DNA of 64,000 bases from an uncultured Arcobacteraceae bacterium (GTDB lineage Bacteria > Campylobacterota > Campylobacteria > Campylobacterales > Arcobacteraceae): positions 32,001 to 96,000 of the forward strand of contig CAXHZO010000004.1 of NCBI GenBank assembly GCA_964022095.1, read 5' to 3'. The translations under genes were made by a program, and so were the position numbers. The notes below the pieces were generated by a model that searched no databases, was not told the DNA's origin, and worked only from the letters and a program-made list of their open reading frames with translations. Below are positions 26,347 to 52,810 of this stretch, piece after piece. Position 1 is the first letter of the stretch, and each line of letters starts with the position of its first letter.

Positions 26347-26413
26347 AGTAAAACCTAATTAATATTTAGGTAGATTATTACATAGAAAACTTAAATATAA
26401 TATTAGGAATAAC

Positions 26414-28032: not shown

Positions 28033-28035
28033 ACT

Positions 28036-32999: not shown

Positions 33000-33011
33000 A
33001 AGGAAATAAAA

Positions 33012-33683
33012 ATGAAAGTAGTAGGACTGATTCCTTTTTGGATGAATAAGGGTAAAGATAGAGATATGGTTAAATTATCAGGTAAATACCTGATTGAATA
33101 TACTATAGAGTTATTAAATAGATCTCAGCTTATTGAAGAAACAATTATCTATGCCTCTAATCAAGAATTCGAAAATTATTTAGATGAAAGTTTAGATTTT
33201 AGTTTTCTAAAGCGTCCCTTATCTCTTGATACTTCAACTACTCGATTAGAAGAAATCGTTGAAGAGTTTTTTAAAGAAAGAGAAGATGTGGATATTATTG
33301 TTCTAGTTCATCCTTATTGTCCTTTTATTAAAATTAAAACAATAGATGAATGTATAAATGCTGTAAAATCTACTGATTATGATTCTTCTTTAACTTCTAT
33401 GCAAATAAAAAAACTATCTTGGTATAAAGGGGAACCATTAAATTTTGAGAAAAATGAACTTTCTCCTAAATTAAAAAATATAGAGCCAATTATAATAGAG
33501 CATGGTTTAACATATGTTATTAAAAAGGATACTTTTAAAAAAACAAAATCTAGAATAGGTTTAAATCCTTATTTTAAATACATCAATCAGTTTGAAGGTT
33601 ATGAAATTGATAATAATGATGATTTATTATTAGCAGAATTAATTGTTAATTCAGGCTTTCATAGAGGAGCAATTAATGATTGA
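33012..33683 (+). CDS. Cytidylyltransferase-3 (CMP-Neu5Ac/Kdo synthetase) fold protein with degenerate N-terminal motif
   Basis: LSGKYLIEYTIE, KRPLSL, HPYCPFI, EIDNNDDL; lacks the RxGSKxxxxKN motif. Confidence 0.7.
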   Translation: MKVVGLIPFWMNKGKDRDMVKLSGKYLIEYTIELLNRSQLIEETIIYASNQEFENYLDESLDFSFLKRPLSLDTSTTRLEEIVEEFFKEREDVDIIVLVHPYCPFIKIKTIDECINAVKSTDYDSSLTSMQIKKLSWYKGEPLNFEKNELSPKLKNIEPIIIEHGLTYVIKKDTFKKTKSRIGLNPYFKYINQFEGYEIDNNDDLLLAELIVNSGFHRGAIND

Positions 33684-34806: not shown

Positions 34807-34819
34807 AAAAAGGGAAGAT

Positions 34820-35581
34820 ATGTCAACAATAATGGATATGAATAATAAAGTATGTATTATAACTGGAGTAGGAAAAGGAATTGGTTATGCCACAGCAAAG
34901 CTTTTTAAACAGCAAGGAGCTAAACTTGCTTTGATAACTCGTTCAGAAGAGGATCTTTTTAAGTTAAAGCAAGAACTTAATATGAATGAAGATGATATTT
35001 ACTGCAAATCAGGAGATGTCTCTGAAGAGAAAGTAGTTAAACAGTTTGTATCTGCTGTATATGAAAAATTTGGAAGAATAGATGTTTTAATTAATAATGC
35101 AGGAATGAGATTTCGAAAAAACTTTCTAGAAATTAGTTATGATGAATGGCAAAATGTTTTGAATGTTAATTTAGGAAGTACTTTTCTTTTTTGTAAAGAG
35201 GTTGGAAAACATATGGTAAATCAAAAATCAGGAGTTATTGTTAATATGGCTTCTATTGTTGGAACTTTAGGATTAGCAGAATTAACTGGTTATGCATCTT
35301 CAAAGGGAGCTATTATTAGTTTAACAAAATCACTTGCTTTAGAGTGGGCAGAATGTGGTATTCGTGTAAATGCAATTGCTCCTGGTTTTTGTGAAACTTC
35401 TTATACAGAAAATTTTAAAAAGAAAGAAGAGTTATATCAGTTTACTTTAGAAAGAACTCCAATGAAAAGATGGGGAAGCTCAGAAGATATTGCTAATACA
35501 TGTCTTTATTTATCTTCAAACCTTTCAAGTTATGTAACAGGAGAAGTTTTATCTGTTGATGGAGGTTGGAGTGCATGGTAA
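34820..35581 (+). CDS. Short-chain dehydrogenase/reductase
   Basis: TGVGKGIG, NNAG, YASSK, NAIAPG, TGEVLSVDGG. Confidence 0.93.
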   Translation: MSTIMDMNNKVCIITGVGKGIGYATAKLFKQQGAKLALITRSEEDLFKLKQELNMNEDDIYCKSGDVSEEKVVKQFVSAVYEKFGRIDVLINNAGMRFRKNFLEISYDEWQNVLNVNLGSTFLFCKEVGKHMVNQKSGVIVNMASIVGTLGLAELTGYASSKGAIISLTKSLALEWAECGIRVNAIAPGFCETSYTENFKKKEELYQFTLERTPMKRWGSSEDIANTCLYLSSNLSSYVTGEVLSVDGGWSAW

Positions 35582-36276
35582 CTAAACTTTCAATGGTTAT
35601 TCCTATAAGAAAAGGAAGTACAAGAACCTTAAATAAAAATACTCGTGCATTTACCCCTGATGGGAAAAGTTTGACACAAATAAAAATCGAAGAGCTAGAA
35701 AAAGTTAAATATGCTGATGAAATTGTTGTTACAACTAATTGCGATGAAATTGAAAATCAAATTAATAAAGTTAAGAAAACAAATAAAATAAAAGTTGTTC
35801 GACGTCCTCAAGAACTATGCTTAGATACAACATTAGTTAAAGATATAATAAATTATATGCCAACAATTTGTTGTGGTGAACATATTCTTTGGTTGCATGT
35901 TACTAGTCCATTTGTAAAAGCTGAAGATTATGATGGAGCAATTAAAAAATATTTTGAAGAATTAGAAAATGGATATGACTCTTTGATGTCAGTAACTTTA
36001 CATAAACAATTTATGTGGAGTGATAAAAAAAAGAGAATAATAAATACTGATGATAAAGTTAATAAATGGCCTAATACCCAAGACTTAGACCCTTTATATG
36101 AGATTAATCATGCTTTTTATATCAATTCACGAGAAAACTACATTCGTACAAGTGATAGAATAGGTAACAATCCTTATTTATATGAGTTGAAAAATGAAAA
36201 ATCAATTGATATTGATTGGGAAGAAGACTTTTTATATGCCCAAAGAATTTATCCTGCAATAAAAGGATTAAAGTAA
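35575..36276 (+). CDS. Cytidylyltransferase-3 (acylneuraminate cytidylyltransferase family) protein
   Basis: PIRKGSTRTLNKN, HVTSPF, TQDLDP, DIDWEEDF; ATG 35575 overlaps the SDR stop. Confidence 0.85.
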   Translation: MVTKLSMVIPIRKGSTRTLNKNTRAFTPDGKSLTQIKIEELEKVKYADEIVVTTNCDEIENQINKVKKTNKIKVVRRPQELCLDTTLVKDIINYMPTICCGEHILWLHVTSPFVKAEDYDGAIKKYFEELENGYDSLMSVTLHKQFMWSDKKKRIINTDDKVNKWPNTQDLDPLYEINHAFYINSRENYIRTSDRIGNNPYLYELKNEKSIDIDWEEDFLYAQRIYPAIKGLK

Positions 36277-37517
36277 TGTTGATTCAAGTTGATGGATGGT
36301 TTGCAGGAGGGAAGACTCTTCTTTGGTCTTTACTAGATGGACACAAAGATATATTTGTAAATCCTATCCATGATTATTCTTTTTCTATGTTTTTAGATAA
36401 AAAAGATGATGACGAATGGATTTTAAAAAAACACTCTATAGTACTTAGAAAAATTTTAAGTACATCAGAATATTACAAATTTGAGAAAATATATTTAGAA
36501 AAAAAATATCAAATACATTTTTCAACAAATAAAATAATGGATGTAGATTATAATGTAGATTTTTATAAATTTGATAAATTATTTTTTTCAAGATTAAATG
36601 ATATGAAATCATGGACTATTGAAGAAATTATAAATTGTCTTTATTCAAGTTATTATGATATTTATAAAGGTTTAGAAAAGATAAAATACCCTAAGTATTT
36701 TGCTTCTATGAGTCATCCTGGACATTTTGATAAATATCAAAATATTCCAAATATTTTTCCAAATATGAAAAGTATTTTAGTAAAAAGAAATATCAAAAAT
36801 ATTATTGCAACAAGAATGAATAGAAAAGAAAGACCAAAGGATTTAAACTCTTTTCAAGCATTTAGAACACCTTTAAAAAAAATACTTGATACAAAAGAGA
36901 TTGAAAAGATACTAAACTATTTTGAAACTTATGATGAACTTCAAAAAAAGTTTCCTTCTCAATTTTTTATAGTTGATTTTGATGAGTTAGTTCTTAATCC
37001 ACAAGAAGCAATGAAAAAGGTTGCTAATTTTTTAGAAATAGAATATGAAGATATTTTATCTATCCCAACTAGAGATGGAAATCTTTTAGAACTTGATGGG
37101 GTAAGTTTTATTGGAAAAGAAAATGATACTTTTGAAAATCTTTTAACCAAAGAAGAACAAAATATAATAGACACTAGGATCAATACATATAATAAAAATA
37201 TAAATAGTGATGAAGTAAATGTAGATAAAAATAAAGCATTTTTTAGAACATTTAACCATCTTCTAATTGATTTAGATGTTATTAGTAGGAAGTTTAATAA
37301 AATAGCAATTTATGGGAATCATTTTCTTGCTGATAGTATAAATTCATATTTAGCAGCAAAATCAATAGGTGTTTTTAATGAAGAGACAATTAACTCCTTA
37401 GCTGAAGATTACGAAGTTATATTAGTAGCTTCTTTAGGTAATGAAGAGATAGTATCTAAATTATTGGTTGAAAAATACAATATAGAAAAAGAAAAAATAA
37501 TATATATACATATTTAG
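36276..37517 (+). CDS. Sulfotransferase-family protein with extra C-terminal domain
   Basis: AGGKTLLWSLLDGH (5'-PSB-like loop), VKRNIKNIIATR, FDELVLNPQEAMKKVANFLEI; ATG 36276 overlaps the upstream stop. Confidence 0.65.
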   Translation: MLIQVDGWFAGGKTLLWSLLDGHKDIFVNPIHDYSFSMFLDKKDDDEWILKKHSIVLRKILSTSEYYKFEKIYLEKKYQIHFSTNKIMDVDYNVDFYKFDKLFFSRLNDMKSWTIEEIINCLYSSYYDIYKGLEKIKYPKYFASMSHPGHFDKYQNIPNIFPNMKSILVKRNIKNIIATRMNRKERPKDLNSFQAFRTPLKKILDTKEIEKILNYFETYDELQKKFPSQFFIVDFDELVLNPQEAMKKVANFLEIEYEDILSIPTRDGNLLELDGVSFIGKENDTFENLLTKEEQNIIDTRINTYNKNINSDEVNVDKNKAFFRTFNHLLIDLDVISRKFNKIAIYGNHFLADSINSYLAAKSIGVFNEETINSLAEDYEVILVASLGNEEIVSKLLVEKYNIEKEKIIYIHI

Positions 37518-37524
37518 GAATAGA

Positions 37525-38703
37525 ATGAAAAAAGTGTTAGTAATTGGTGGGGGAAAGTGGCAAGTACCTATAGTAAAAAAAGTTAAAGAATTAGGCTTTG
37601 AATGTATTTGTTCAAATTTATATGAAAATTCTGAAGCTTTTTCATTTGCTGACTATTCTTATGTAGCCAATGTTTTAGATAAAGAAACAAATTTAGAAAT
37701 TGCTATAAAACATCAAGTAGATGCTGTTATTACAGATCAAACTGATATTGCTGTTAATACAGTTGCTTATATTAATGAAAAATTAAATTTATTAGGGATT
37801 AAAATTGATGATGCAAAAGCATTTACTAATAAGTTATTAATGAGAAAAAATATAAGTGTAAAAGGATTAAGCCACCCAAATTATGAAGTTTGTAAAAGCG
37901 TTGAAGATGTTGTGGCTTTTTTTAAAGAGCAGAATAAACCAATAATTATTAAGCCTTTAAATAATCAGTCAAGTAGAGGAGTAAACTATATATCTTCACT
38001 AGATACTATTCCTAATTTGGTTAAGGATACATTGGCTAATAGCAATGAAGAAATATTTTTAGCAGAAGAATATATTCAAGGAATAGAATTAACAGCAGAA
38101 GGATATAAGTTTAAAAATACTAATCATTGTACTTTAGGGGTGTCTAAAAAAACACATTACAATAATATTATTGGTGTTGCCCAATCTTTACAATATCAGA
38201 AAACTTTTGAAGAGTTTGATATTGATGAATTAAAAAGAATTAATGATGAAATATTTAAAAATTTGCCTTTTTGTATTACTCATGTAGAATATAAATATTT
38301 TAATAAAAAATTTTATTTAGTAGAAGCTGCAATAAGAGGAGGAGGAACTAGAATTTCTTCAGATATAGTTCCTATTCATAGTGGATATGATATTAATAAA
38401 TTTTTGATTTACGATTTATTAGATATAAAATTTAAAAAAGAAAAATCTTGCTCTACTAGTGATTTTGTTATATTGAAATTTTTAGATTTTAAAGAGGGCA
38501 AAGTTAAACAGATAAATCACAAATGCAACAAAAATCCAAATATAATTGATTGGGAATTAGAGTTTAAAAAAGGTCATCAAATCCAATCTCCAAATGATGA
38601 TAGAAGTCGTTTAGGGTATTTTATTTTAAAATCAGATAGTTTAGAAAAACTAAATAAGGATATAGAAAATTTTGAGAATAGCATCGATATAGTTTATGAA
38701 TAA
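37525..38703 (+). CDS. ATP-grasp domain protein (putative amide ligase)
   Basis: FTNKLLMR, IIKPLNNQSSRGV, AEEYIQG, HVEY, VEAAIRGGG. Confidence 0.85.
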   Translation: MKKVLVIGGGKWQVPIVKKVKELGFECICSNLYENSEAFSFADYSYVANVLDKETNLEIAIKHQVDAVITDQTDIAVNTVAYINEKLNLLGIKIDDAKAFTNKLLMRKNISVKGLSHPNYEVCKSVEDVVAFFKEQNKPIIIKPLNNQSSRGVNYISSLDTIPNLVKDTLANSNEEIFLAEEYIQGIELTAEGYKFKNTNHCTLGVSKKTHYNNIIGVAQSLQYQKTFEEFDIDELKRINDEIFKNLPFCITHVEYKYFNKKFYLVEAAIRGGGTRISSDIVPIHSGYDINKFLIYDLLDIKFKKEKSCSTSDFVILKFLDFKEGKVKQINHKCNKNPNIIDWELEFKKGHQIQSPNDDRSRLGYFILKSDSLEKLNKDIENFENSIDIVYE

Positions 38704-38712
38704 GGAAAAGTT

Positions 38713-39402
38713 TTGCTAACACAAGAAGATAAAGAAAAAGTTATACAAAGATATACAAATAGATATATTGAGCATGGTAAATGTCCAAAAACTTTAGGAT
38801 GGGATAAAGGTAAACAAGACTTAAGATATCATATTTTATTTGAAAAATTTGATTTGGAAAATAAATCAATATTGGATATTGGTTGTGGCTTTGGTGATGC
38901 AAATATTTTATTAAAAAACAAATTTCATAATTATGAGTATACTGGAATTGATATTGTTCCTGATCTTATCAAAGAAGCAAAAGAAGAGTATTCAAATCAA
39001 AACAATATTAATTTTATTTTAGAAGATTTTTTAGCTCATGATTTTGGAGATAAAAAATTTGATATCGTTGTGGGTTCGGGTATTTTTAATTTTAAATTAG
39101 CTGATAGAGATAACTATGAGTACATAAATTCAATTTTAGAAAAAGCATTTCATCTTTCAAAAGAAGGTATTTCTTTTGACTTCTTATCTAATAAGGTTGA
39201 CTTTGAATATGAACTTACTTTTCATAGTGATCCTAAAATAATTTTAGATAAAGCATATAATCTAAGCAATAATCTTATTTTAAATAATAGCTATATGCCA
39301 TTTGAGTTTGCAATTAGTGTTTTTAAAGATATTTCCTTTGAAAAAAAAGATACAATATTTACAAGGTATAAAAATGAAAATGACTATTATAGATTTTATT
39401 AA
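38713..39402 (+). CDS. Class I SAM-dependent methyltransferase
   Basis: ILDIGCGFG, YTGIDI, SGIFN; TTG start with AAGGA RBS. Confidence 0.88.
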   Translation: MLTQEDKEKVIQRYTNRYIEHGKCPKTLGWDKGKQDLRYHILFEKFDLENKSILDIGCGFGDANILLKNKFHNYEYTGIDIVPDLIKEAKEEYSNQNNINFILEDFLAHDFGDKKFDIVVGSGIFNFKLADRDNYEYINSILEKAFHLSKEGISFDFLSNKVDFEYELTFHSDPKIILDKAYNLSNNLILNNSYMPFEFAISVFKDISFEKKDTIFTRYKNENDYYRFY

Positions 39403-40018
39403 AAGAAATAGAGTATCAACAACTGAAATTGCTGATTGTATGGGTAAAAAAGGTTCAGTATACAATGTTAATGCAGTAAATAGAGGTCATTTTAAAGTTG
39501 GAAATCTTTTTTATGTATATGCTTGTAATGGTACAAATTGGGATGTTCATGAACAAGTCCAATATGTAAATGATGGAGATATAGTATTTATTGATGCCTT
39601 AGATAATAATGATAAAGCAATTATTGGAGATTTGGTTTCTAAATATTTATTACTATATAAACAAGCAGGTGCGATTGTAACTAATGGATTATTAAGAGAT
39701 GCCCCAAGATTAATAAAAGAAAATTGGGCAATTTGGTGTAAAGGTTTTAATCCAGTAGGGTATATAAATGAAAAAGTTGAATTAAATTCTGAACAAAAAA
39801 AATTAATTGAGAAAAAAAAATCTTTTTATCAAGATTGTATAGCAGTTTGTGATGATACAGGTGTTGTGTTGATCCCTAAAGAATTTCATAATAAAGAATT
39901 CCTTGAAAATATAAAATATATAGAAGAACAAGAAGATATCTGGTTTGACTGTATAGATAGACAAAAGCTTTCAACTTTTGAAACAGTATGTTTAAAAAAA
40001 TATGAGGATATAAATTGA
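39374..40018 (+). CDS. RraA / HMG-aldolase family protein
   Basis: STTEIADC, GDIVFID, AIIGDL, GLLRD, DDTGVVLIP; likely ATG at 39374 or 39380 rather than 39302. Confidence 0.8.
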   Translation: MKMTIIDFIKRNRVSTTEIADCMGKKGSVYNVNAVNRGHFKVGNLFYVYACNGTNWDVHEQVQYVNDGDIVFIDALDNNDKAIIGDLVSKYLLLYKQAGAIVTNGLLRDAPRLIKENWAIWCKGFNPVGYINEKVELNSEQKKLIEKKKSFYQDCIAVCDDTGVVLIPKEFHNKEFLENIKYIEEQEDIWFDCIDRQKLSTFETVCLKKYEDIN

Positions 40019-41145
40019 TACATTTTAATAAACCACCTTATACTTCTTTAGAAAAAAAGTTTGTAAATGAAGCAATGCAAAATGTAACAATCTCTGGAGA
40101 TGGACCTTTTACTAATAAATGTGAAAAGTGGTTTGAAAAAGAATTACAATGTGAAAAAGCTCTTTTAACTCCTTCTTGTACTCATGCTTTAGAAATGATG
40201 GCAATTTTAATTGATATAAAAGAAGGTGATGAGGTAATAATGCCTTCTTATACATTTGTATCTACTGCAAATGCTTTTGCAATAAGAGGAGCAAAAATAG
40301 TTTTTGTTGATATTAAAGCAGATACATTAAATATTGATGAAGATAAAATTGAAGATGCAATTTCAGATAAAACAAAAGCAATTGTAGTTGTTCATTATGC
40401 AGGAGTTTCTTGCAATATGGATAAAATAATGACTCTCTCAGATAAATATGATATTTTTGTTTTAGAGGATGCTGCACAAGGTGTAAAGAGTTATTATAAA
40501 GAGAAACCATTAGGAACCATTGGTCATTTTGGCGCATTTAGTTTCCATGAAACAAAAAATATAACTAGCGCTGGAGAGGGTGGTTTACTAATTATAAATG
40601 ATAAACGTTTTACACAAAGAGCTGAGATTATTCGTGAAAAAGGAACAAATAGAAAACTATTTTTTAGAGGTTTAGTTGATAAATATAGTTGGGTAGATTT
40701 AGGTAGTAGTTATTTATTAAATGATGTTAGTGCAGCATATCTATGGGCACAAATTCAAATGATAGATAATATTCAAGTAGATAGACTTAATACTTGGAAT
40801 AGATATGAAAAAGGCTTAAAACAATTATCATCAAAAGGTTTTATAACTTTACCGACTGTTCCTAGTGACTGCACAAATAATGCACATATGTTTTATATAA
40901 AAGTAAGAGATTTAGAAGAAAGAGAGTCTTTAATTAAATACTTAAAGCAAAATGATATTAATGCCGTATTTCATTACGTTCCACTTCACACAGCACCAGC
41001 AGGAAAGATTTTTGGTAAGTTTGAAGGAATTGATGAGTTTACAACAACTGAAAGTGAAAGATTAGTTCGGTTACCTTTATATTATGGTTTAGACAAAGAA
41101 AAGGTAGAATATATAATACAGAAAATAAAGAGTTTTTATGAATAA
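40015..41145 (+). CDS. wecE: dTDP-4-amino-4,6-dideoxygalactose transaminase
   Basis: SGDGPFT, LTPSCTHALEM, EDAAQG, FSFHETKN, REKGTNR, DKYSWVDLGSS, VFHYVPLH typical of WecE/RffA. Confidence 0.9.
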   Translation: MIHFNKPPYTSLEKKFVNEAMQNVTISGDGPFTNKCEKWFEKELQCEKALLTPSCTHALEMMAILIDIKEGDEVIMPSYTFVSTANAFAIRGAKIVFVDIKADTLNIDEDKIEDAISDKTKAIVVVHYAGVSCNMDKIMTLSDKYDIFVLEDAAQGVKSYYKEKPLGTIGHFGAFSFHETKNITSAGEGGLLIINDKRFTQRAEIIREKGTNRKLFFRGLVDKYSWVDLGSSYLLNDVSAAYLWAQIQMIDNIQVDRLNTWNRYEKGLKQLSSKGFITLPTVPSDCTNNAHMFYIKVRDLEERESLIKYLKQNDINAVFHYVPLHTAPAGKIFGKFEGIDEFTTTESERLVRLPLYYGLDKEKVEYIIQKIKSFYE

Positions 41146-41845
41146 TACAGAATTAAACTCTCCTAGTAAGTATCATCACAATAGGCGACAGATTAATTGG
41201 TTATTATATGATATTACTGATAAGTATTTAACAGAGTTTTCTAAGTATTATAAAGGAACGTTAGTAGATTTAGGTTGTGGAACAGCACCTTATAAAGAGT
41301 TTTTCTTACAATATGCAAATTCATATATTGGGGTAGATTGGTCAGAAAGTATTCATGAGTTTAAAGGTGATGTTATTTCAAATTTAAATGAAAAAATCAA
41401 TTTAGAGGATGATTTTGCAGATACAGTAGTATCTTTATCTGTTATGGAACATTTATATAACCCAGAAGTTTTTTTATCAGAAGCTTATAGAGTTTTAAAA
41501 AATGATGGAGTATTTGTTTTAGGTGTTCCTTGGATGTGGTGGATTCATGAAGCTCCTCATGATTATTATAGGTATACGTCTTTTGGATTAAAACACTTAT
41601 TACAAAAAGCTGGTTTTTCAGAAGTCGAAATTATTCCAACTTCAGGTTTTTTTACAACTATATTTATAAAAATGAACTATTTTAGTGTGAATTTTTTAAA
41701 AGGTTCTAAATTTAAAGTTAATTTATTAAGAACATTATTTAGACCTTTTTGGTTTCTATCTCAAAAACTTGCGCCTTATTTAGATAAATATGATAAAGAT
41801 TGGAACAAAGAGTGTCAAAGTTATTTTGTTATTGCAAAAAAGTAA
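41138..41845 (+). CDS. Class I SAM-dependent methyltransferase
   Basis: VDLGCGTAPY, VMEH, HEAPHDYYRYT. Confidence 0.88.
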   Translation: MNNTELNSPSKYHHNRRQINWLLYDITDKYLTEFSKYYKGTLVDLGCGTAPYKEFFLQYANSYIGVDWSESIHEFKGDVISNLNEKINLEDDFADTVVSLSVMEHLYNPEVFLSEAYRVLKNDGVFVLGVPWMWWIHEAPHDYYRYTSFGLKHLLQKAGFSEVEIIPTSGFFTTIFIKMNYFSVNFLKGSKFKVNLLRTLFRPFWFLSQKLAPYLDKYDKDWNKECQSYFVIAKK

Positions 41846-41854
41846 GGATTAAAA

Positions 41855-42916
41855 ATGATTTGGTTTGATTTAGTTACTCCTAAATCTGTTTTATTTTTTA
41901 TACCTATTATAAAAGAAATAGAAAACAGAGGTAAAAAGGTTTTAATAACTGCACGAGAAGGAAATGGCTATTCCGAAGTTGTGGAATTATTAAAGTTATA
42001 TAATATAGATTTTGTTAATAGAGGAGAATTTGGAGGTGCTTGTTTAAAAGACAAGCTTTATGCTTCAATTGAGCGTCAAAAAGCCTTGATGGAGTTTGTT
42101 ACTTTATATGAAATCGATAGATTAGTTTGTTTATGTTCTGTTGATGCAAATAGGGTTGCATTTGGTTTAGGCATTCCTGTAATAAACTTTTACGATATTC
42201 CCTTATCTGATCATAAAACTAATTTTAAAAAAGCATTACCTCAAGCGCGATTAACTTTACCTCTTGCTAGTAAAGTATTTAAGCCGTTTGTTGTTCCTGA
42301 TGAAATATTCTTAAGATTTTCATTGGATGAAGAGCAGATCTTTGAGTATAATTTTATTGATCCTTTAATTTGGTTAAAAGATTTTAAGCCGGATTATTCT
42401 TATGTAGAAGAGATACTAAAACCTTATAATTTGGATCTTTCAAAGAAACTTATTGTAATTAGAGAAGAAGAGTATAAGTCTTCATATGTTGATAAAAAGT
42501 ATCCTATTCTTTATGAAGTTTTAGAAGAAATAAATAATAAAACTAATTCAAATATCATAATTATTCCACGATATGAAAGTGAATATTTAAAACAAGAATT
42601 CCCTTTTACTACAGTATTAGAAGAGAAGGTAGTTATTCAACATTTATTAGCCTATGCCGATTTATTCATTGGTGGAGGTGGAACTTTAAATACAGAAGCA
42701 TGTTTCTTTAAAACACCTACGATTTCAACTAGAAGTTTTATTTGTCATTATGATAAATATCAAATTGATAATGAATTAATGTATTGGGTTGATACAAAAG
42801 ATGAATTATTAAAAAGAGTATATACTTTGCTTGAAAAAACAAAAAAACAAGAAAAGAGTGTATTTGATAACATGAGTATTGATTTATCCAAAATAGTTGA
42901 TAGCATTTTAAGTTAA
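41855..42916 (+). CDS. DUF354-family protein (GT-B-like fold)
   Basis: MIWFDL, ITAR, RVAFGLGIP, DLFIGGGGTLNTEA. Confidence 0.75.
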   Translation: MIWFDLVTPKSVLFFIPIIKEIENRGKKVLITAREGNGYSEVVELLKLYNIDFVNRGEFGGACLKDKLYASIERQKALMEFVTLYEIDRLVCLCSVDANRVAFGLGIPVINFYDIPLSDHKTNFKKALPQARLTLPLASKVFKPFVVPDEIFLRFSLDEEQIFEYNFIDPLIWLKDFKPDYSYVEEILKPYNLDLSKKLIVIREEEYKSSYVDKKYPILYEVLEEINNKTNSNIIIIPRYESEYLKQEFPFTTVLEEKVVIQHLLAYADLFIGGGGTLNTEACFFKTPTISTRSFICHYDKYQIDNELMYWVDTKDELLKRVYTLLEKTKKQEKSVFDNMSIDLSKIVDSILS

Positions 42917-42925
42917 AGGTATTAT

Positions 42926-44980
42926 ATGACAGAAAATAATGAACAACAATTACAAGAAGCACTAGTAAAAAACTTTTTTTCTAACTTAGAGTTTTTAAAA
43001 TCTAAGGATAATGAGTTATTTCAAAGAGTAGAAAATTTATCAAATGCAATAAATAGTGGACTCTATGAAGCACGATTTGAATTAGAGTTTTTATCACAAT
43101 ATGGTGAGTTTGATATTTTAGATTTAACTACAAATAAATATTTATATAATAAAAACTTAAAAAAGTTTAACCATAAAGTAATTAATTCTGTTAAATTTGA
43201 TAAAAGTTCTTCTTTTTCTATTTTAGTACCAGAAGTATATAGTTTAAATAAAGAATATGTGGATATTGATTTGGATTATGAAAGTTATGAAGAAATAGAG
43301 GGAATAATTTCAAATGATATTAAAGAATTCACAGATGTTTTAAAAGATGATACAACAAAAGAAAAAAGTTTTAAATATATTAATAAATTTGTTTTCTTAG
43401 GTACATTATTAGGCAGACATTTTTTTGAAATTAAGAAAAAGGTAAATGCTCAACATTATTTTATCTACGAATACAATTTAGAAATATTTAGATTGTCATT
43501 ATTTACAGTAAATTATCAAGAATTAGCACATGGATGTAATTTATCTTTTTCTATAATGGATAATGAAACTTTATTAATGAGAAAGATTCAATTATTTTTA
43601 GAAAATAATATGTATGAAAACTATAATATTAAATTTGCTACTACAAACTACAATGTTTCACATGGTATGCACTCATTTATTTCTACTTTATATAAAGTAA
43701 ATCCAGCGATTTTTGACTATACTCGAATTCTACATAATTTAGTTAGACTTTCTACTCAAAGAGTTAGTGATGTAAAAATGTTAATGCCAAATATAGAAAG
43801 TAATTTTGATTCATTAAAAAATAAACCTTTCTTATTTGTAGCTCCTGGCCCATCTTTATCAAAAGAGATTGAGTGGATAAAAGAAAATCAAAAAAAATTT
43901 GTAATTGTTTCAATTGGGGCTTCATATAATAAATTATTAGAATATGAAATAACACCTGATTTATTGAGTAATGTTGAGTCAAGTTATAAAGATTTAAAGA
44001 AGTTTCAATTTAAAGATTTAGATAAAAGTAGATTAGATAACACAGTAAAACTATTTTCAATAATCACTCCTCCTCAAATTAGTGATTTATTTGATGATAA
44101 AGATACTTTTTATTATGAAGTTAATTATTCTTTAAAAGATAAAAAAGATATTTATAAAGGTTATAGTGTCGGTGAAATCACTGTATCTTTATTACTTGAT
44201 TTGGGAATAAAAGATTTATATTTAATAGGAACAGATTTATCAGTTGATAAAGAGACTGGGAATAGTCATTTTGGATATAAAGATGGTGGAGAAATAAATC
44301 ATGATTTAAATAAAGATTATGATATTACAGAAAACTTATCAAACAATAAGACATCTTTTAAAGAAGATCTAATACCTGTTGAAGGAAACTTTGAAAAAGA
44401 GGTTTATACTACTAGAATATTTATGAATTCTATATTTTCATATGCTCAATCAATCCAACAATTTAAAAAAGAGAATCAAACTATCAAAAACCTTTCTATT
44501 TTTGGAGCAAAGTTGCATGGAACAATTCCTTTTAAAACAAGTGATATTAATTTAGAAGAGTATAATACTCTTAATAAAAAAGATTTAAAAGAAGAAGTTC
44601 TTAAATATTTAAATTCTATATCAGAATCTAAACTTACGGAAAAAGAAGCTATTAATCTTAAAAAAGAGATTTCTTATTTTAAAGATATTTTAGAAGAAAT
44701 AAGTAAATATCATGAGATAGAAGTAAAAAATTATTTTGAATTCTATGACATTATGACTGATGTTGAAAATAAAATAAAGCGTATAGGTTATCCCACTTTT
44801 TTAGATTTCCAAATGCAATCTTATTTCAAATTTATAAATACATATCTTTGTTATCATTTTAATGATAAAAAAGTTAAGAATGAAGTGAATAAATTAACAA
44901 AAATAAAAGAGATATGGCTTAAACAAGTAGAAAAATTAATCAATGAATATATAGAATATTTTGAGAGAATTAAAATATAA
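42926..44980 (+). CDS. maf: Motility-associated factor (Maf) flagellin glycosyltransferase
   Basis: N-terminal FFSNLEFL, FLGTLLGRH, central APGPSL, YLIGTDL; adjacent to flagellins. Confidence 0.88.
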   Translation: MTENNEQQLQEALVKNFFSNLEFLKSKDNELFQRVENLSNAINSGLYEARFELEFLSQYGEFDILDLTTNKYLYNKNLKKFNHKVINSVKFDKSSSFSILVPEVYSLNKEYVDIDLDYESYEEIEGIISNDIKEFTDVLKDDTTKEKSFKYINKFVFLGTLLGRHFFEIKKKVNAQHYFIYEYNLEIFRLSLFTVNYQELAHGCNLSFSIMDNETLLMRKIQLFLENNMYENYNIKFATTNYNVSHGMHSFISTLYKVNPAIFDYTRILHNLVRLSTQRVSDVKMLMPNIESNFDSLKNKPFLFVAPGPSLSKEIEWIKENQKKFVIVSIGASYNKLLEYEITPDLLSNVESSYKDLKKFQFKDLDKSRLDNTVKLFSIITPPQISDLFDDKDTFYYEVNYSLKDKKDIYKGYSVGEITVSLLLDLGIKDLYLIGTDLSVDKETGNSHFGYKDGGEINHDLNKDYDITENLSNNKTSFKEDLIPVEGNFEKEVYTTRIFMNSIFSYAQSIQQFKKENQTIKNLSIFGAKLHGTIPFKTSDINLEEYNTLNKKDLKEEVLKYLNSISESKLTEKEAINLKKEISYFKDILEEISKYHEIEVKNYFEFYDIMTDVENKIKRIGYPTFLDFQMQSYFKFINTYLCYHFNDKKVKNEVNKLTKIKEIWLKQVEKLINEYIEYFERIKI

Positions 44981-45007
44981 GACTAAGTCTAATTAACTTA
45001 GTCTTAT
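44977..45007. terminator. Bidirectional terminator between convergent maf and flagellin
   Basis: Perfect 12-bp inverted repeat ATAAGACTAAGT / ACTTAGTCTTAT. Confidence 0.75.
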
Positions 45008-45021
45008 GAAAAAATGATTGA

Positions 45022-45870
45022 TTATTGTAATAATCTTAAAACATTTTGTTGCGATGCATTTGCTTGAGAAATAGCATATGAACCAGCTTGTGAAATAATG
45101 TTTTGTTTGTTAAAGTTTGCACTTTCTTGTGCGTAATCAACATCTCTAATAATTGATTCAGCTGCTTTAACATTAGTAGCTTGAGTCATTAAGTTTCTAA
45201 CTGCAGATTCAACTTGATTTTGAGTAGAACCTATCTCAGATCTATTACTATTTAGTGTTGTAATAGCAGTATCAACAGTTGTTTGTGCAGTTCCAGCTAG
45301 TGAAACAGAAATACCACCTGCATCAACAGATGTTCTAATTGATGTTAATCCTAATCCAGTAACATTTGATGTAATAGCAGCCGTACTGATTGTATCAGTT
45401 GATTTTTCACCAATTTGGAATGATAAAGCCGTTGAAGCAGCACTTGAAGTGGCATTTTCTTGTAAAAGGTATGTACCATTATAGTTTGTTTGTGCAGCAA
45501 TATTATCTAATTGATCTAATAATTTAGAAACATCATCAGCAATAGCAGCTCTACCATCAGAAGATGTAGTAGAAGTATTAGCTTGAATTAATTTCGCTTT
45601 GATTGTATCAAGAATATTTGATTGCTCAGCCATTGATTTATCAGCGATTTGTAATAATGCAACAGCAGAGTTACCATTATCAACACCTTGGTTGATAGAA
45701 GTAGCTTGAGTTCTAAGTTTATCAGCAATTGCTAAACCTGATGCATCATCTGATGCTTTATTGATTTTTAAACCAGAAGATAATTTTTCTAAAGACGAAG
45801 AAACATTCGCATTAGTGTTTATTGCAGATTCTTGTGCATTTAATGATGACACATTTGTATTGATTCTCAT
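45022..45870 (-). CDS. Flagellin (copy 1)
   Basis: MRINTN, LEKLSSGLKINKASDDASGLAIA, IRDVDYAQE, VLRLLQ. Confidence 0.98.
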   Translation of the reverse strand: MRINTNVSSLNAQESAINTNANVSSSLEKLSSGLKINKASDDASGLAIADKLRTQATSINQGVDNGNSAVALLQIADKSMAEQSNILDTIKAKLIQANTSTTSSDGRAAIADDVSKLLDQLDNIAAQTNYNGTYLLQENATSSAASTALSFQIGEKSTDTISTAAITSNVTGLGLTSIRTSVDAGGISVSLAGTAQTTVDTAITTLNSNRSEIGSTQNQVESAVRNLMTQATNVKAAESIIRDVDYAQESANFNKQNIISQAGSYAISQANASQQNVLRLLQ

Positions 45871-45981
45871 AATAAATCCTTTTTAATTATGACACATTGT
45901 AAATCTATATTTACACCCTAAAACCTTCTTGTTTTACCAAGCATAGAGTAGTTAACTCTTCGGAATTCATTAATCCCTATA
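45871..45981 (-). ncRNA. Putative structured cis-regulatory 5' leader of flagellin 1
   Basis: 111-nt near-copy of 46890-47004; four predicted hairpins plus AAGGA RBS. Confidence 0.6.
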
Positions 45982-46009
45982 AAATAGTTTTGAGGATAAT
46001 AAAAATCTT

Positions 46010-46040
46010 TTTTAAAGAAGTAAAAAAAACTTCTTTAAAA
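46010..46040 (-). terminator. Hairpin immediately after the flagellin 2 stop codon
   Basis: 12-bp inverted repeat TTTTAAAGAAGT / ACTTCTTTAAAA. Confidence 0.6.
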
Positions 46041-46889
46041 CTATTGTAATAATCTTAAAACATTTTGTTGCGTTGCATTTGCTTGAGAAATAGCATATGA
46101 ACCAGCTTGTGAAATAATGTTTTGTTTGTTAAAGTTTGCACTTTCTTGTGCGTAATCAACATCTCTAATAATTGATTCAGCTGCTTTAACATTAGTAGCT
46201 TGAGTCATTAAGTTTCTAACTGCAGATTCAACTTGATTTTGAGTAGAACCTATCTCAGATCTATTACTATTTAGTGTTGTAATAGCAGTATCAACAGTTG
46301 TTTGTGCAGTTCCAGCTAGTGAAACAGAAATACCACCTGCATCAACAGATGTTCTAATTGATGTTAATCCTAATCCAGTAACATTTGATGTAATAGCAGC
46401 CGTACTGATTGTATCAGTTGATTTTTCACCAATTTGGAATGATAAAGCCGTTGAAGCAGCACTTGAAGTGGCATTTTCTTGTAAAAGGTATGTACCATTA
46501 TAGTTTGTTTGTGCAGCAATATTATCTAATTGATCTAATAATTTAGAAACATCATCAGCAATAGCAGCTCTACCATCAGAAGATGTAGTAGAAGTATTAG
46601 CTTGAATTAATTTCGCTTTGATTGTATCAAGAATATTTGATTGCTCAGCCATTGATTTATCAGCGATTTGTAATAATGCAACAGCAGAGTTACCATTATC
46701 AACACCTTGGTTGATAGAAGTAGCTTGAGTTCTAAGTTTATCAGCAATTGCTAAACCAGAAGCATCGTCTGACGCTTTATTAATTTTTAAACCAGAAGAT
46801 AATTTTTCTAAAGACGAAGTGATATTCGAATTAGTGTTTATTGCAGATTCTTGTGCATTTAATGATGACACATTTGTATTAATTCTCAT
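46041..46889 (-). CDS. Flagellin (copy 2)
   Basis: Same motifs as copy 1; differs by a few residues near the termini. Confidence 0.98.
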   Translation of the reverse strand: MRINTNVSSLNAQESAINTNSNITSSLEKLSSGLKINKASDDASGLAIADKLRTQATSINQGVDNGNSAVALLQIADKSMAEQSNILDTIKAKLIQANTSTTSSDGRAAIADDVSKLLDQLDNIAAQTNYNGTYLLQENATSSAASTALSFQIGEKSTDTISTAAITSNVTGLGLTSIRTSVDAGGISVSLAGTAQTTVDTAITTLNSNRSEIGSTQNQVESAVRNLMTQATNVKAAESIIRDVDYAQESANFNKQNIISQAGSYAISQANATQQNVLRLLQ

Positions 46890-47004
46890 AATAAATCCTT
46901 TTTATTTATGACACATTGTAAATCTATATTTACACCCTAAAACCTTCTTGCATCTTAATACAAGCATAGAGTAGTTAACCCTTCGGAATTTATTAATCCC
47001 TATA
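46890..47004 (-). ncRNA. Putative structured cis-regulatory 5' leader of flagellin 2
   Basis: 115-nt near-copy of 45871-45981 with a longer third hairpin. Confidence 0.6.
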
Positions 47005-47063
47005 TTTATAATAGAATTATTACACACCAATTCTTAAAATTAGATTAAAAATACTATATGCAT

Positions 47064-47100
47064 AAAAAAAAGTTAAGAATTTAATCTTAACTTTTTTTTT
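47064..47100 (-). terminator. Intrinsic terminator downstream of flagellin 3
   Basis: A8-GTTAAGA / TCTTAAC-T run; U-tract available on both strands. Confidence 0.75.
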
Positions 47101-47116
47101 TATATTTTAAAATTAT

Positions 47117-47965
47117 TTATTGAAGTAATCTAAGAACATTTTGTTGTACATTATTTGCTTGAGAAATAGCATATGAACCAGCTTGTGAAATAATGTTTTG
47201 TTTGTTAAAGTTTGCACTTTCTTGTGCGTAATCAACATCTCTAATAATTGATTCAGCTGCTTTAACATTAGTAGCTTGAGTCATTAAGTTTCTAACTGCA
47301 GATTCAACTTGATTTTGAGTAGAACCTATCTCAGATCTATTACTATTTAGTGTTGTAATAGCAGTATCAACAGTTGTTTGTGCAGTTCCAGCTAGTGAAA
47401 CAGAAATACCACCTGCATCAACAGATGTTCTAATTGATGTTAATCCTAATCCAGTAACATTTGATGTAATAGCAGCCGTACTGATTGTATCAGTTGATTT
47501 TTCACCAATTTGGAATGATAAAGCCGTTGAAGCAGCACTTGAAGTGGCATTTTCTTGTAAAAGGTATGTACCATTATAGTTTGTTTGTGCAGCAATATTA
47601 TCTAATTGATCTAATAATTTAGAAACATCATCAGCAATAGCAGCTCTACCATCAGAAGATGTAGTAGAAGTATTAGCTTGAATTAATTTCGCTTTGATTG
47701 TATCAAGAATATTTGATTGCTCAGCCATTGATTTATCAGCAATTTGTAATAATGCAACAGCAGAGTTCCCATTATCAACACCTTGGTTAATTGAAGAAGC
47801 TTGAGTTCTAAGTTTATCAGCAATTGCTAAACCAGAAGCATCATCTGATGCTTTATTGATTTTTAAACCTGAAGATAACTTCTCTAATGAATTTTGTAGA
47901 TTCTTATTAGTATTTACATTTGCTTCTTGTGCAGACAAAGAAGATATATTTGTGTTAATTTTCAT
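47117..47965 (-). CDS. Flagellin (copy 3, divergent N-terminus, no structured leader)
   Basis: MKINTNISSLSAQEANVNTNKNLQNSLEKLSSG; central region identical to copies 1 and 2. Confidence 0.98.
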   Translation of the reverse strand: MKINTNISSLSAQEANVNTNKNLQNSLEKLSSGLKINKASDDASGLAIADKLRTQASSINQGVDNGNSAVALLQIADKSMAEQSNILDTIKAKLIQANTSTTSSDGRAAIADDVSKLLDQLDNIAAQTNYNGTYLLQENATSSAASTALSFQIGEKSTDTISTAAITSNVTGLGLTSIRTSVDAGGISVSLAGTAQTTVDTAITTLNSNRSEIGSTQNQVESAVRNLMTQATNVKAAESIIRDVDYAQESANFNKQNIISQAGSYAISQANNVQQNVLRLLQ

Positions 47966-48046
47966 GATTTACCTTTTCATGTTTTATTTATGTATTTATT
48001 TTATCTAAAAATTATTAGATATTTCTTAAATTTTTCTTAATAATAA

Positions 48047-49168
48047 TTATTTTATTGATAAAATAACACCTGATTCTATATGTTTAGTATATGCGAACTG
48101 GTCAAATAGTGCAAAGCTATCGATTTTATGAGTTTTTGTTAACTCTAATAAATCTCTATGTAGCGTTTCTGGATTACATGAAACATAAATTATCTTTTTA
48201 AAATCTTTTGCTAAACTTCTTGTAGTGTCATCTAGCCCAGCACGTGGTGGGTCCATAAATATCATATCAAAATTATAGCTTTTTAAATCAATATCTTTTA
48301 GTCTTTTAAATTCTCTTTTTTGCGCCAATGCTTCACTAAATTCTTCTGCGCTCATTCTAATAAAATCTATACTATCATTTGAGTTTAGTTCACAGTTTCT
48401 TTTTGCAGATTTAATTGATGTTTTTGAAATTTCTGTTGCTAAAACTTTATTGAATTTTGTACTTAAAGGAATCGTAAAGTTACCTCCACCACAATAAAGC
48501 TCACATAGGTCATCTTCACTTTTTTCAATATTGTTTAAAACCCATTCAATCATTTGTATATTTACATTTGTATTTGGTTGAGTGAAACCACCTTCTTCAT
48601 ATGCAAATTTATACTTAGTATTGCAAATTTCTAACTCTTCATTGATAAAGTCTTCACTTAAAACAAGTTTTTGCTTTCTACTTCTACCAATAATTTTTAT
48701 ATTTAATAGTTTTTCAAGCTTTTTTGCTTTTTCTTCCCAATTAGATTCTAGTTTTTTATGATAAATCAATGTTACTAATAAATCATTTGTAGTTGAACCT
48801 AAAAATTCTACAGAAAATATTTTATATTTTAGAATATCATCTTTTGAAATTGCTTCTAATAATTTTGGCATAACTTGTGAAATATGAGAACTTACAATTT
48901 GGCAAGACTCTATTTCTAATGCATTTTTATCAAAATCATTCATTGCATATGAAATTGTAGGGTTCTGCTCATCATCAAAGTTTTTCCAGATTCTAAATTC
49001 TGCTCTATTTCTAAAGTTAGAATCAGCACTTTTTATAACATCAAAATTAATATTAGTTAGATCAGAAAATCTTTCTTTTTCTCTTTGTAATTTAAAATCA
49101 AGTTGTTCTTCATATGACTTATCAAAAAGTACACATGAACCACATTTCCCAAAATATTCACAATTCAT
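48047..49168 (-). CDS. trmA: tRNA (uracil-5-)-methyltransferase
   Basis: FRNRAEFRIW, FTQPN, ELYCGGGNFT, DPPRAG, YVSCNP, FDQFAYTKHIE; ATG 49168 (TTG 49171 also possible). Confidence 0.93.
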   Translation of the reverse strand: MNCEYFGKCGSCVLFDKSYEEQLDFKLQREKERFSDLTNINFDVIKSADSNFRNRAEFRIWKNFDDEQNPTISYAMNDFDKNALEIESCQIVSSHISQVMPKLLEAISKDDILKYKIFSVEFLGSTTNDLLVTLIYHKKLESNWEEKAKKLEKLLNIKIIGRSRKQKLVLSEDFINEELEICNTKYKFAYEEGGFTQPNTNVNIQMIEWVLNNIEKSEDDLCELYCGGGNFTIPLSTKFNKVLATEISKTSIKSAKRNCELNSNDSIDFIRMSAEEFSEALAQKREFKRLKDIDLKSYNFDMIFMDPPRAGLDDTTRSLAKDFKKIIYVSCNPETLHRDLLELTKTHKIDSFALFDQFAYTKHIESGVILSIK

Positions 49169-50878: not shown

Positions 50879-52810
50879 GTGTTCAGTTTTTTTAAAGCAA
50901 ATGAAGAAAACTTTTATAATGAACTACTTAAAGACGAACTAGATGTAAATAAAATAAAAAAATTTATTCTAAAAGGTATTGATCTTAATAAAAAAGATGA
51001 AAAAGGAAGAACTATCCTTTTTTCTTTAGTGTCTAAAAGAAAAGTTGATTCTATTAGATATCTATTAAAATTTGATTTAGATTTAAATAGTGAAGATAAT
51101 TATGGAAAAACAGTTTTAGATCACTGTATTGATAAATCTGATGGAATGATGATTCGCTTTTTACTTGAAAATGGAGCAAGTGTAAATAAGCTTAGTAGTT
51201 CAAATAGAACTCCTCTTCAAGATGCAGCCCTAAGTGGTAGTTATAAAATTTTTGAAATACTAATGAAGTATAATCCTGATTTCACTATTTATGAAAACAA
51301 TACTCAACATATTTTATTTGATGCAATAAAAGGTAAGAACCTAAATATTATAAAAGATGTTATCAATAATTTAAAGAACTTAAATGTATTAAATGATGAT
51401 AATCAAACAGTACTTTTTGAAGCAGTACTGCTTGAAAATAAAGAGATAGCTAAATCTTTAATTGCAAATGGAATAAATGTAAATTTCTTAGATAAAAATG
51501 GGGAAAATGCTCTTTTTAATGCTGTTCTTCTAGGTAGTAAAAACTTTGAAATAATAGAGTTTTTAATAAAAAAAGAGATTAATATTAATCTTATAAATAA
51601 TTCAAATAAAAATATTTTAGATGAAATTTTATTTATTATAAATCTTTTATCTTCAAATAAAAAACTACAAGGTAAATATAAACTAGCCAATAGCGCTTAT
51701 GATTATACAAAAATTGTTAAACTTCTAATTAAAAATGGATTAGAAATTGATCAAATTCATGATGAAAAAACAACTCTTCAAATAGCAATTGAAAATAAAG
51801 ATTTAGCAAGTGCAAAATTTTTAATTGAGTGCGGAGCTGATATAAACCATACTGATTTAGATGGTAAAACTTTTTTAGCAAAAGAGATAGTAAAAGGTTA
51901 TGATAACTATTTAATCGTTGATTTTTTAGTTGAAAGTGGCATTGATTTAGATCACAAAGATATTGATGAAAAAACTATTGTTGATGATTTAGTTGAGTAT
52001 ATTTGTGTTGAAAAAGGTTTTAAAGAAGCAAAAGGTTTTTATAAAGACAATCTTGTAGAAAATGGAAGATATGATATTTTATTAAAAAAAATATTATCAT
52101 ATAGACCAAATCTTGATGCGAAAAGACTTAATGGCAGAAATGTATTGTTTGACGTAGTTTTATATAATGATTATGAAACAATAAAACAGCTAGTTAATAG
52201 TGGAATAAATTTAAATCTTCAAGATAATGATGGAAATACAGCACTTCATTTTATGATAGAAAATGGCTTGAAAATTACGGATAAAAAGAAAAGAGAAGAG
52301 TTTATAGAAAGACTGATTTTCTTTTTAAAATTTAGGGTTAATGTAGATCTTCAAGATAATGAAGGAAGAACAGTTTTTCATAAATCTGTGATTGCCGATG
52401 ATTTGATAGTAACAGAAAAACTTCTTACAAAAAAAGCAAATTTATCATTAAAAGATAAACATGGCAGAACTGCACTTCACCATACCCAATGGAATGGAAA
52501 TCATAAAATTGCAAGATGGTTAATAGCAGCAGGTGCTGATATGAATATTCCTGACAAGTCAGGGTTTACATTATTAAATTATGCAGCCATTTTTGGGCAT
52601 ATAAAACTTGTTATGACTCTTATTGCTTCTGGTGTTTTAATGTATAATAAAAATCCAAAAAATAAGAAAGTTGCTAAATTCTTTAAAGAAAAAGAACCAA
52701 ATTTAGGTCTGTTATTAAAAAATAATATTAGTGATGATAAAATGCGAAAAGCATTAAAAGATGTAGTAGAAAACTTAAGAAATGAAATAAATGAAGCTTT
52801 ACAAGGATAA
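50879..52810 (+). CDS. Ankyrin-repeat protein
   Basis: Repeated G-x-T-x-L-H/F units (DNDGNTALH, DKHGRTALH, DNEGRTVFH, GADIN); GTG start. Confidence 0.9.
   Translation: MFSFFKANEENFYNELLKDELDVNKIKKFILKGIDLNKKDEKGRTILFSLVSKRKVDSIRYLLKFDLDLNSEDNYGKTVLDHCIDKSDGMMIRFLLENGASVNKLSSSNRTPLQDAALSGSYKIFEILMKYNPDFTIYENNTQHILFDAIKGKNLNIIKDVINNLKNLNVLNDDNQTVLFEAVLLENKEIAKSLIANGINVNFLDKNGENALFNAVLLGSKNFEIIEFLIKKEININLINNSNKNILDEILFIINLLSSNKKLQGKYKLANSAYDYTKIVKLLIKNGLEIDQIHDEKTTLQIAIENKDLASAKFLIECGADINHTDLDGKTFLAKEIVKGYDNYLIVDFLVESGIDLDHKDIDEKTIVDDLVEYICVEKGFKEAKGFYKDNLVENGRYDILLKKILSYRPNLDAKRLNGRNVLFDVVLYNDYETIKQLVNSGINLNLQDNDGNTALHFMIENGLKITDKKKREEFIERLIFFLKFRVNVDLQDNEGRTVFHKSVIADDLIVTEKLLTKKANLSLKDKHGRTALHHTQWNGNHKIARWLIAAGADMNIPDKSGFTLLNYAAIFGHIKLVMTLIASGVLMYNKNPKNKKVAKFFKEKEPNLGLLLKNNISDDKMRKALKDVVENLRNEINEALQG

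Follow-up and report, generated by a model that had tools for sequence, protein, structure and literature searches.

The locus described here raises the question of why two of three adjacent flagellin genes in an uncultured Arcobacteraceae bacterium carry nearly the same non-coding DNA directly in front of their start codons. The genes lie in a 64-kb stretch of contig CAXHZO010000004.1 (GenBank assembly GCA_964022095.1, positions 32,001–96,000), referred to as the window, to which all coordinates refer unless another locus is named; the flagellin genes and the segments preceding them are all on its minus strand. An initial annotation, made from the letters of the window, had read the repeated segment as an mRNA leader of four hairpins (P1–P4) acting after transcription. 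With a probability of roughly 0.55, we favor the reading that it is a new cis-acting leader of flagellin mRNAs, family-wide in Arcobacteraceae, which would set translation or stability through a trans-acting factor.

Leader copy 1 (111 nucleotides (nt), 45871..45981, minus strand) precedes flagellin gene 1, and leader copy 2 (115 nt, 46890..47004, minus strand) precedes flagellin gene 2. The near-identity noted in the initial annotation was borne out, with 106 of 115 aligned columns identical, while the next 60 nt upstream of the two leaders were unrelated (37 of 68 aligned columns identical) and the upstream region of the third flagellin gene showed no similarity to the leader. RNAfold of both copies gave four hairpins and a weak start-codon helix, reproducing exactly the P1–P4 that had been named. 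For copy 1, these were P1 at 45962-45977, P2 at 45945-45959, P3 at 45928-45941 and P4 at 45898-45915, followed by the conserved UGUGUCAUAAU at 45886-45896 and the Shine-Dalgarno (SD) sequence AAGGA at 45877-45881, all on the minus strand; the weak helix UCAUAAU/AUUAUGA (45867-45892, minus strand) encloses the SD and pairs the AUG. For copy 2, P1 was at 46985-47000, P2 at 46968-46982, P3 at 46947-46964, P4 at 46917-46934 and the SD at 46896-46900 (minus strand), with a P3 of 7 base pairs (bp) that is longer than the P3 of copy 1. Each of the differences listed previously was found, namely G/A in the P1 loop, an A-U to G-U change in P2, the longer P3 and one unpaired T/A. The folding energies were within chance for both copies (z = -1.21 and -1.51, with 25 and 13 of 200 shuffles folding equally well), so that a single-sequence fold proves nothing alone and evidence must come from comparison.

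For comparison, 73 loci were recovered with the window flagellin from species-representative genomes. All were Arcobacteraceae-like, the closest coming from a Halarcobacter metagenome-assembled genome (89% flagellin protein identity), and together they contained 131 flagellin start codons. A profile made from the two window copies matched 91 of these 131 upstream regions at E<1e-4. A calibrated covariance model, R1, was then built from 88 distinct leaders and gave 99 matches at E<=0.01 in 490,969 nt (the window plus the 73 loci), all on the flagellin strand. Of the 99, 97 run precisely up to a detected flagellin ATG and the other 2 are cut by locus ends; within the DNA examined, the leader sits only directly before flagellin start codons. 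The window copies scored 123.2 bits (copy 1) and 110.2 bits (copy 2), and no further copy was found in the 64-kb window, where the next-best covariance match scored 19.6 bits (E 0.21). In total, 94 distinct leader sequences were collected; the leader was present at 95 of the 132 flagellin starts having sufficient upstream DNA, and at least one copy was present in 62 of 70 sources. Given these family-wide matches, which come with covariation (below), the similarity of the two window copies is not merely the result of recent duplication, a possibility that the initial annotation had raised against its own proposal. The leader accompanies the presumed major flagellins, and the flagellin gene beside trmA is usually leaderless. 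Arcobacteraceae-like flagellin genes are present on all four contigs labeled Colwellia (L002), Helicobacter pylori PMSS1 metagenome-assembled genome (L048), Izemoplasmatales (L054) and Sulfurospirillum (L061), and on L002 and L061 the leader is found as well, pointing to errors in binning or labeling.

Covariation was assessed on a MAFFT alignment of 88 distinct leaders made blind to structure. RNAalifold predicted P1–P3 from this alignment, with changes on both sides in 11 of 15 pairs. Paired cells amounted to 97.1%, versus 82.2 ± 0.6% in shuffled alignments (0 of 500 shuffles reached the observed value), and double-change cells numbered 203, versus 60.2 in shuffles. As a control that retains relatedness, the 3′ partner was moved by 1–3 columns, giving pairing in 33%–48% of cells and a covariation score of at most 0.116, versus 0.459 observed. 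P4, the length of which is too variable for MAFFT, was assessed by RNAfold and with a model-fitted alignment. RNAfold gave a hairpin at the P4 position in almost every one of the 88 sequences, formed by stems of many kinds (for example GUAAAU/AUUUAC, GUGAGU/AUCAC, CCCG/UGGG and GGAUAUU/AAUAUUC), and 6 of 6 P4 pairs had changes on both sides in the model-fitted alignment, which leans toward structure, these P4 counts included. In a mutual-information scan to which no structure was supplied, the predicted pairs ranked top and no long-range or pseudoknot pairs appeared beyond them. On a tree made from 450 nt of adjacent coding sequence, a gene that itself undergoes gene conversion, each variable pair switched type at least 5–19 times, and pair 23/83, which hardly varies, did so twice; thus, the covariation signal is not one inherited event. 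G-U cells outnumbered A-C cells by 103 to 11, and the third pair of P1 is kept as G-U in about half of the sequences. The G-U excess places the structure on the flagellin sense strand. By the measure of these sequence comparisons, a four-hairpin sense-strand structure is under selection across Arcobacteraceae, with compensatory changes in each of P1–P4, and the presence of a structured RNA on the mRNA strand is close to certain.

The core is laid out as UA-[P1: 6 bp, loop nAUn]-RA-[P2: variable length]-AUG-[P3: variable length]-AAKGU and is followed by P4, which has free sequence and fixed position, and by the ribosome-binding region in a weak local helix. Invariant or near-invariant letters are the UA before P1, the P1 loop nAUn, RA, AUG, the first two pairs of P3 and AGAA-K-GU. 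The leader is about 110–135 nt long, and P2 and P3 hold inserts of up to about 40–50 nt in some species with the core kept (P3 in L037, 688-870 and 1771-1948; P2 in L071, 2858-3006), so that the distal stems are free. Because its structure covaries, lies on the sense strand and immediately precedes a single class of genes, the element has the general properties of a structured cis-acting mRNA leader.

The statement that the element belongs to no recognized RNA family held in scans with Rfam 15. For the window interval 44900-48200, cmscan at E<=10 returned 7 weak matches, none overlapping a leader, and ten further loci at E<=1 returned one unrelated match (E 0.85). A literature search found no description of a structured flagellin leader in Arcobacter. 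Two other identities were considered and rejected. For a transcription attenuator or intrinsic terminator, P4 precedes AAUGUGUCAUAAU and the leaders hold no terminator-like site. For an upstream open reading frame (ORF) starting at the invariant AUG, the ORFs are 3–27 codons long and their frames relative to the main ATG are distributed 30/29/32 among 91 leaders.

Upstream of about 60 of 93 leaders lies a conserved block, TTTAATCTAAnT-TTAAGAAWTGGTRTGTMATAAT (counted by regular expression, which misses a few variants and includes one doubtful match). Its internal spacing is fixed, its distance to the UAGG of P1 is 31–46 nt (mode 36), and it can be parsed as a pair of TTTAA repeats, spaced 11 bp apart, with a TGn-extended -10 after them. 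The repeats look like the site of an activator replacing a -35. The window has this box, TAATCTAATTTTAAGAATTGGTGTGTAATAAT, before leader 2 (47016..47047, minus strand, with the -10 AATAAT at 47016-47021), and the box pattern had one match in the window versus 0 of 100 shuffles; a variant, TTAAGAAAAATTTAAGAAATATCTAATAAT, precedes gene 3 (~48011-48040, minus strand) and a box-like sequence precedes a small basic ORF (~26378-26400, minus strand). With a stricter pattern, the 426,969 nt of loci gave 64 matches, each of them on the flagellin strand. Of these, 54 lie 114–180 nt before a flagellin ATG with the leader in between, 2 lie 31–36 nt before the ATG of a leaderless flagellin and 8 precede a small ORF. 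Because the box also stands before leaderless flagellins, promoter and leader are separable modules, with the leader downstream of the -10. A scan with the consensus promoter was uninformative (18 sites versus 20.4 expected).

The position of the box upstream of P1 makes a transcription start site (TSS) downstream of the hairpins less likely, and we infer that transcription starts a few nt before the UAGG of P1, which would place P1 within roughly 4–12 nt of the predicted TSS. Judging from covariation, from the excess of G-U over A-C and from where the promoter box lies, the leader is very probably part of the flagellin transcript. The 11-mer form TGTGTMATAAT occurs both in the -10 of the box (TGTGTAATAAT, 47016-47026) and in the P4–SD interval of the leader (TGTGTCATAAT, 45886-45896 and 46905-46915, minus strand), where it equals the -10 part of the family box; this recurrence could reflect an internal promoter, a site of pausing or a protein site common to both places.

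The start site occurs in two forms. In class A (71 leaders including those of the window), the predicted probability of being unpaired averages 0.74 at the SD and 0.10 at the AUG. In class B (20 leaders from Malaciobacter-like loci; examples are in L024, L028, L032, L036 (1362-1494), L041 and L046), P1–P3 are kept, P4 and the linker are replaced, and a 10-bp anti-SD helix, UAAAUCUUUU/AAAGGAUUUA, gives a predicted unpaired probability of the SD of 0.09. Two different ways of occluding the start site fit control of initiation, according to these predicted folds. A fourU thermometer was rejected for the class A leaders of the window, the SD of which is predicted to be open (0.74); pairing of the SD in the fourU manner was found, by prediction alone, in class B, whose 20 leaders come from other loci.

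These results can be joined as follows. The leader would be transcribed from the box 31–46 nt upstream of P1, or by read-through within the array, and would act in cis after transcription. Its P1–P3 core would probably be the docking site for a trans-acting factor other than CsrA. This factor would set how easily the ribosome opens the start-site helix, and hence the lifetime of the mRNA, and flagellin synthesis would thereby be coupled to flagellar assembly in a lineage without sigma28/FlgM, sigma54/FlgRS and CsrA. The fixed length of P1, its conserved loop and G-U pair, the invariant junctions and the freedom of P2 and P3 in their distal parts resemble a recognition surface for a specific partner more than a plain stabilizer. 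That the leader is a translational operator which also affects mRNA life, working through a specific trans-acting factor (a protein or another kind) that controls translation or stability, is a tentative proposal, to which we give somewhat less than even odds.

Several points weigh against this reading. The genes examined for a trans-acting factor, namely the neighboring genes in the window and loci, yielded none, and the literature search turned up no TSS or RNA sequencing data on flagellin genes from any member of the Arcobacteraceae. In the wider set, single leaders fold with unexceptional energies (z -0.6 to -2.6), and the start-site helices are A/U-rich, weak and invariant in sequence, hence without covariation support. 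The lean of the model-fitted alignment toward structure and gene conversion in the gene used for the tree count on the same side. Thirty-three of the 93 leaders are boxless, lying inside gene arrays or behind a small ORF, so that a function needing a 5′-terminal position cannot hold for all copies. Lastly, the internal 11-mer could be a promoter giving a very short leader, which is unlikely because the start would fall inside the SD and the box part TTTAAGAA is absent.

Among other explanations, the leader could be a constitutive stabilizer against 5′-dependent decay, or a processing mark in polycistronic array transcripts, with no dedicated regulator in either case. The predicted closeness of P1 to the TSS (roughly 4–12 nt), the open SD of class A and the association with presumed major flagellins rather than the usually leaderless trmA-adjacent gene agree with such a role, as does the retention of array-internal leaders, where processing would give each gene a protected 5′ end. 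A stabilizer would not need invariant junction letters, a fixed P1 and loop and four ordered hairpins across genera, however; the SD-sequestering helix of class B points to initiation control, and one third of copies are internal, contrary to a role that depends on the 5′ terminus. We regard this explanation as possible, though rather unlikely. An element acting at the DNA level, in which the palindromes are operators, TGTGTCATAAT before the SD is the promoter and the hairpins are never RNA, draws on the identity of the 11-mer with the -10 part of the upstream box, on P4 being a perfect palindrome just upstream of it and on the uninformative consensus promoter scan (18 versus 20.4 expected). 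It is hard to reconcile with stems that vary yet stay complementary around P2 and P3 loops of 4 to ~40 nt, unlike dimeric protein sites, or with the 103 G-U versus 11 A-C cells. Moreover, the internal 11-mer lacks TTTAAGAA, the constant companion of the -10 in the box, a start 7 nt past the 11-mer would cut into the SD, and class B leaders have no 11-mer. Of the explanations considered, this is the one that we hold to be nearly out of the question.

The leader could also sense directly, as a small-molecule riboswitch (for example for a second messenger) or an RNA thermometer. Its outer stems vary around junction letters that stay fixed, a pattern reminiscent of aptamers. FourU thermometers use a U-rich, weak helix, and the class B helix UAAAUCUUUU/AAAGGAUUUA resembles them in both respects. 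No closing helix joins the hairpins, however, the mutual-information scan gave no covarying alternative pairing, Rfam riboswitches gave no match, and the SD is predicted to be open in class A, the type found in the window. Direct sensing is improbable in our judgment, even though A. butzleri carries many cyclic di-GMP proteins, as stated in its genome description (PMC2147049).

The initial annotation had pointed to CsrA, through ANGGA motifs near both ends of the leader, and this part of its proposal was not supported. As reported by Mo et al. (2022; PMC9321776), Arcobacter genomes are without CsrA, RpoN, FlgRS, FliA and FlgM and retain FliW; in part 11 of their table S8, six of six Arcobacter rows have a dash for CsrA, RpoN, FlgRS, FliA and FlgM and one FliW of 123–125 amino acids (aa). 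The absence of the sigma28 cascade from A. butzleri, also stated in the initial annotation, is confirmed by Miller et al. (2007; PMC2147049). By that account of Arcobacter genomes, their FliW is an orphan partner-switch protein, its known partner CsrA being absent (PMC9321776). A CsrA-binding leader would have GGA bound near the 5′ end and at the SD, with FliW relieving repression. Such a leader would be consistent with the SD AAGGA in the loop of the weak hairpin of class A leaders, with AGGGA at the start of P1 in the window copies and with the reported retention of the FliW gene (PMC9321776). The GGA of the SD is conserved across leaders, but a second conserved site was rejected: the GGA in the 5′ arm of P1 is present in 29 of 89 distinct leaders and lies within the stem, not the loop, and a GGA between P3 and P4 is present in 11 of 89. 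The invariant letters UAGG, CC-RA, AUGCU and AGAA are not CsrA motifs. Together with the reported absence of CsrA (PMC9321776), these counts leave CsrA control a very slim chance. Of the post-transcriptional leader originally proposed, the covarying structure on the sense strand was thus retained and CsrA as its factor was not (GGA 29/89).

Structured leaders of flagellin mRNAs are a known kind of element; the present family is not a known one, and neither its architecture nor its likely partner was described in the literature searched. The Bacillus subtilis hag leader is a flagellin leader of the CsrA-FliW type. In Caulobacter, the fljK 5′ untranslated region (UTR) is repressed by FlbT/FlaF. 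There, a flagellin mRNA leader is bound by a protein other than CsrA that is dedicated and specific to its lineage, a precedent for the mechanism favored here; no relation in sequence or structure to the Arcobacteraceae leader is expected, the likeness being one of mechanism only, and among the neighboring genes covered in the window and loci there was no FlbT or FlaF. Conserved structured RNAs upstream of flagellar genes also include flg-Rhizobiales and other flagellum-linked Rfam motifs, which, like the leader, are comparative finds without assigned partners and are linked to it by no Rfam match. The leaders of E. coli ompA and B. subtilis aprE are 5′ stabilizers that require a 5′-terminal position and show little sequence conservation. 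Like the Arcobacteraceae leader, they are long, structured 5′ UTRs of mRNAs with very high expression and have a hairpin close to the 5′ end; the Arcobacteraceae leader differs in that its junction letters are invariant across genera and one third of its copies are internal. A close parallel in a related lineage is the C. jejuni flaA 5′ UTR with CsrA-FliW (Dugar et al. 2016; PMC4894983), likewise a structured leader of the major flagellin mRNA. The flaA and hag leaders have the SD in a hairpin loop and an expected coupling of translation to assembly, as in Arcobacteraceae, and are short and defined by two CsrA GGA sites. The Arcobacteraceae leader, in contrast, is 110–135 nt long with four hairpins, other invariant letters and an unconserved second GGA, and its hosts are reported to be without CsrA (PMC9321776).

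Within the window, the array consists of three tandem genes on the minus strand, each encoding a flagellin of 282 aa (Pfam Flagellin_N/C matches). Gene 1 (45022..45870) has the leader and no promoter box of its own, gene 2 (46041..46889) has both, and gene 3 (47117..47965; N-terminus MKINTN...) has no leader, its variant box being followed by a short, A/U-rich, unstructured 5′ region. Between ~nt 230 and nt 812 the three coding sequences are identical, and all differences are confined to the two ends (837 and 801 of 849 nt identical), a sign of gene conversion within the array. A terminator-like hairpin with a 13-pair stem (44977..45007, minus strand) lies 3′ of gene 1 at the end of the array. 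Two further hairpins on the minus strand were found by eye. One, GUUAAGA/UCUUAAC followed by a U run (47064..47091, 3′ of gene 3), is under the G-C threshold of the terminator scan and probably ends the gene 3 transcript before the promoter box of gene 2. The other, between gene 2 and leader copy 1 (46014..46036), is weak, A/U-rich and without a U tail and was not called a terminator. Because leader 1 has no box and follows this weak hairpin, read-through from gene 2 may reach it, which is plausible.

Directly upstream of the array is a flagellin glycosylation island (26414-44980, plus strand) with NeuB, several cytidylyltransferases, a DegT aminotransferase, methyltransferases and a sulfotransferase-like protein, and within it a Maf motility accessory factor (42926-44980, plus strand). 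No regulator gene was found beside the array in the window, where the neighbors are only this island, trmA and a Suv3-like helicase gene; conserved flagellin neighbors across loci are a Maf-like protein, TrmA, a helicase and a small basic ORF. Further along, 50879-52810 (plus strand) encodes a 643-aa protein made nearly entirely of ankyrin repeats, which is unusual in a free-living bacterium.

The small basic ORF encodes a very basic protein of 64–78 aa that was matched in 21 sources (20 of the 73 loci and the window) and is usually encoded directly upstream of a leader-bearing flagellin. The window copy (26140-26346, minus strand) is at the edge of the glycosylation island with the box-like sequence in front; other copies include L024 1600-1800, L040 2642-2842 and L031 1596-1790. 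Nineteen locus copies were clustered as ORFs, and a flagellin-type box precedes the ORF in at least 8 loci. Invariant residues include K12, Q14, S24-R25-N26, K29-Y30, K36-H37 and R46. The protein has no Pfam or NCBIfam family. At E<=0.001 it has 1219 relatives, of which nearly all named ones are called "hypothetical protein"; one Joint Genome Institute record was labeled automatically as YmcA family, and most of the organisms that are named belong to the Arcobacteraceae. AlphaFold modeled the protein as a confident helical hairpin (predicted local distance difference test score (pLDDT) 91.9). Foldseek against PDB returned nothing at E<=0.001, a PDB sequence profile nothing below E 0.68 and ESM Atlas no usable match. 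The small basic protein is a candidate regulator.

The ordering of flagellar gene expression in Arcobacter and its relatives has been an open question since the first genome. One speculative answer, which we put forward as doubtful, is that a flagellin checkpoint may have taken the place of sigma28/FlgM and CsrA in Arcobacteraceae, with the leader as its RNA receptor: an RNA-binding factor, for which the small basic protein would be a concrete candidate, would dock on P1–P3 and gate the start-site helix, and would be titrated by unexported flagellin or by the orphan FliW. As a candidate new RNA family, the leader itself is well supported, 94 distinct sequences and a calibrated model being available. 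In this lineage, two family-wide cis elements accompany the late gene that is expressed most strongly, namely the promoter box with 11-bp repeats and the covarying four-hairpin leader, and both can be used as DNA or RNA pull-down baits and as reporters for the missing regulators.

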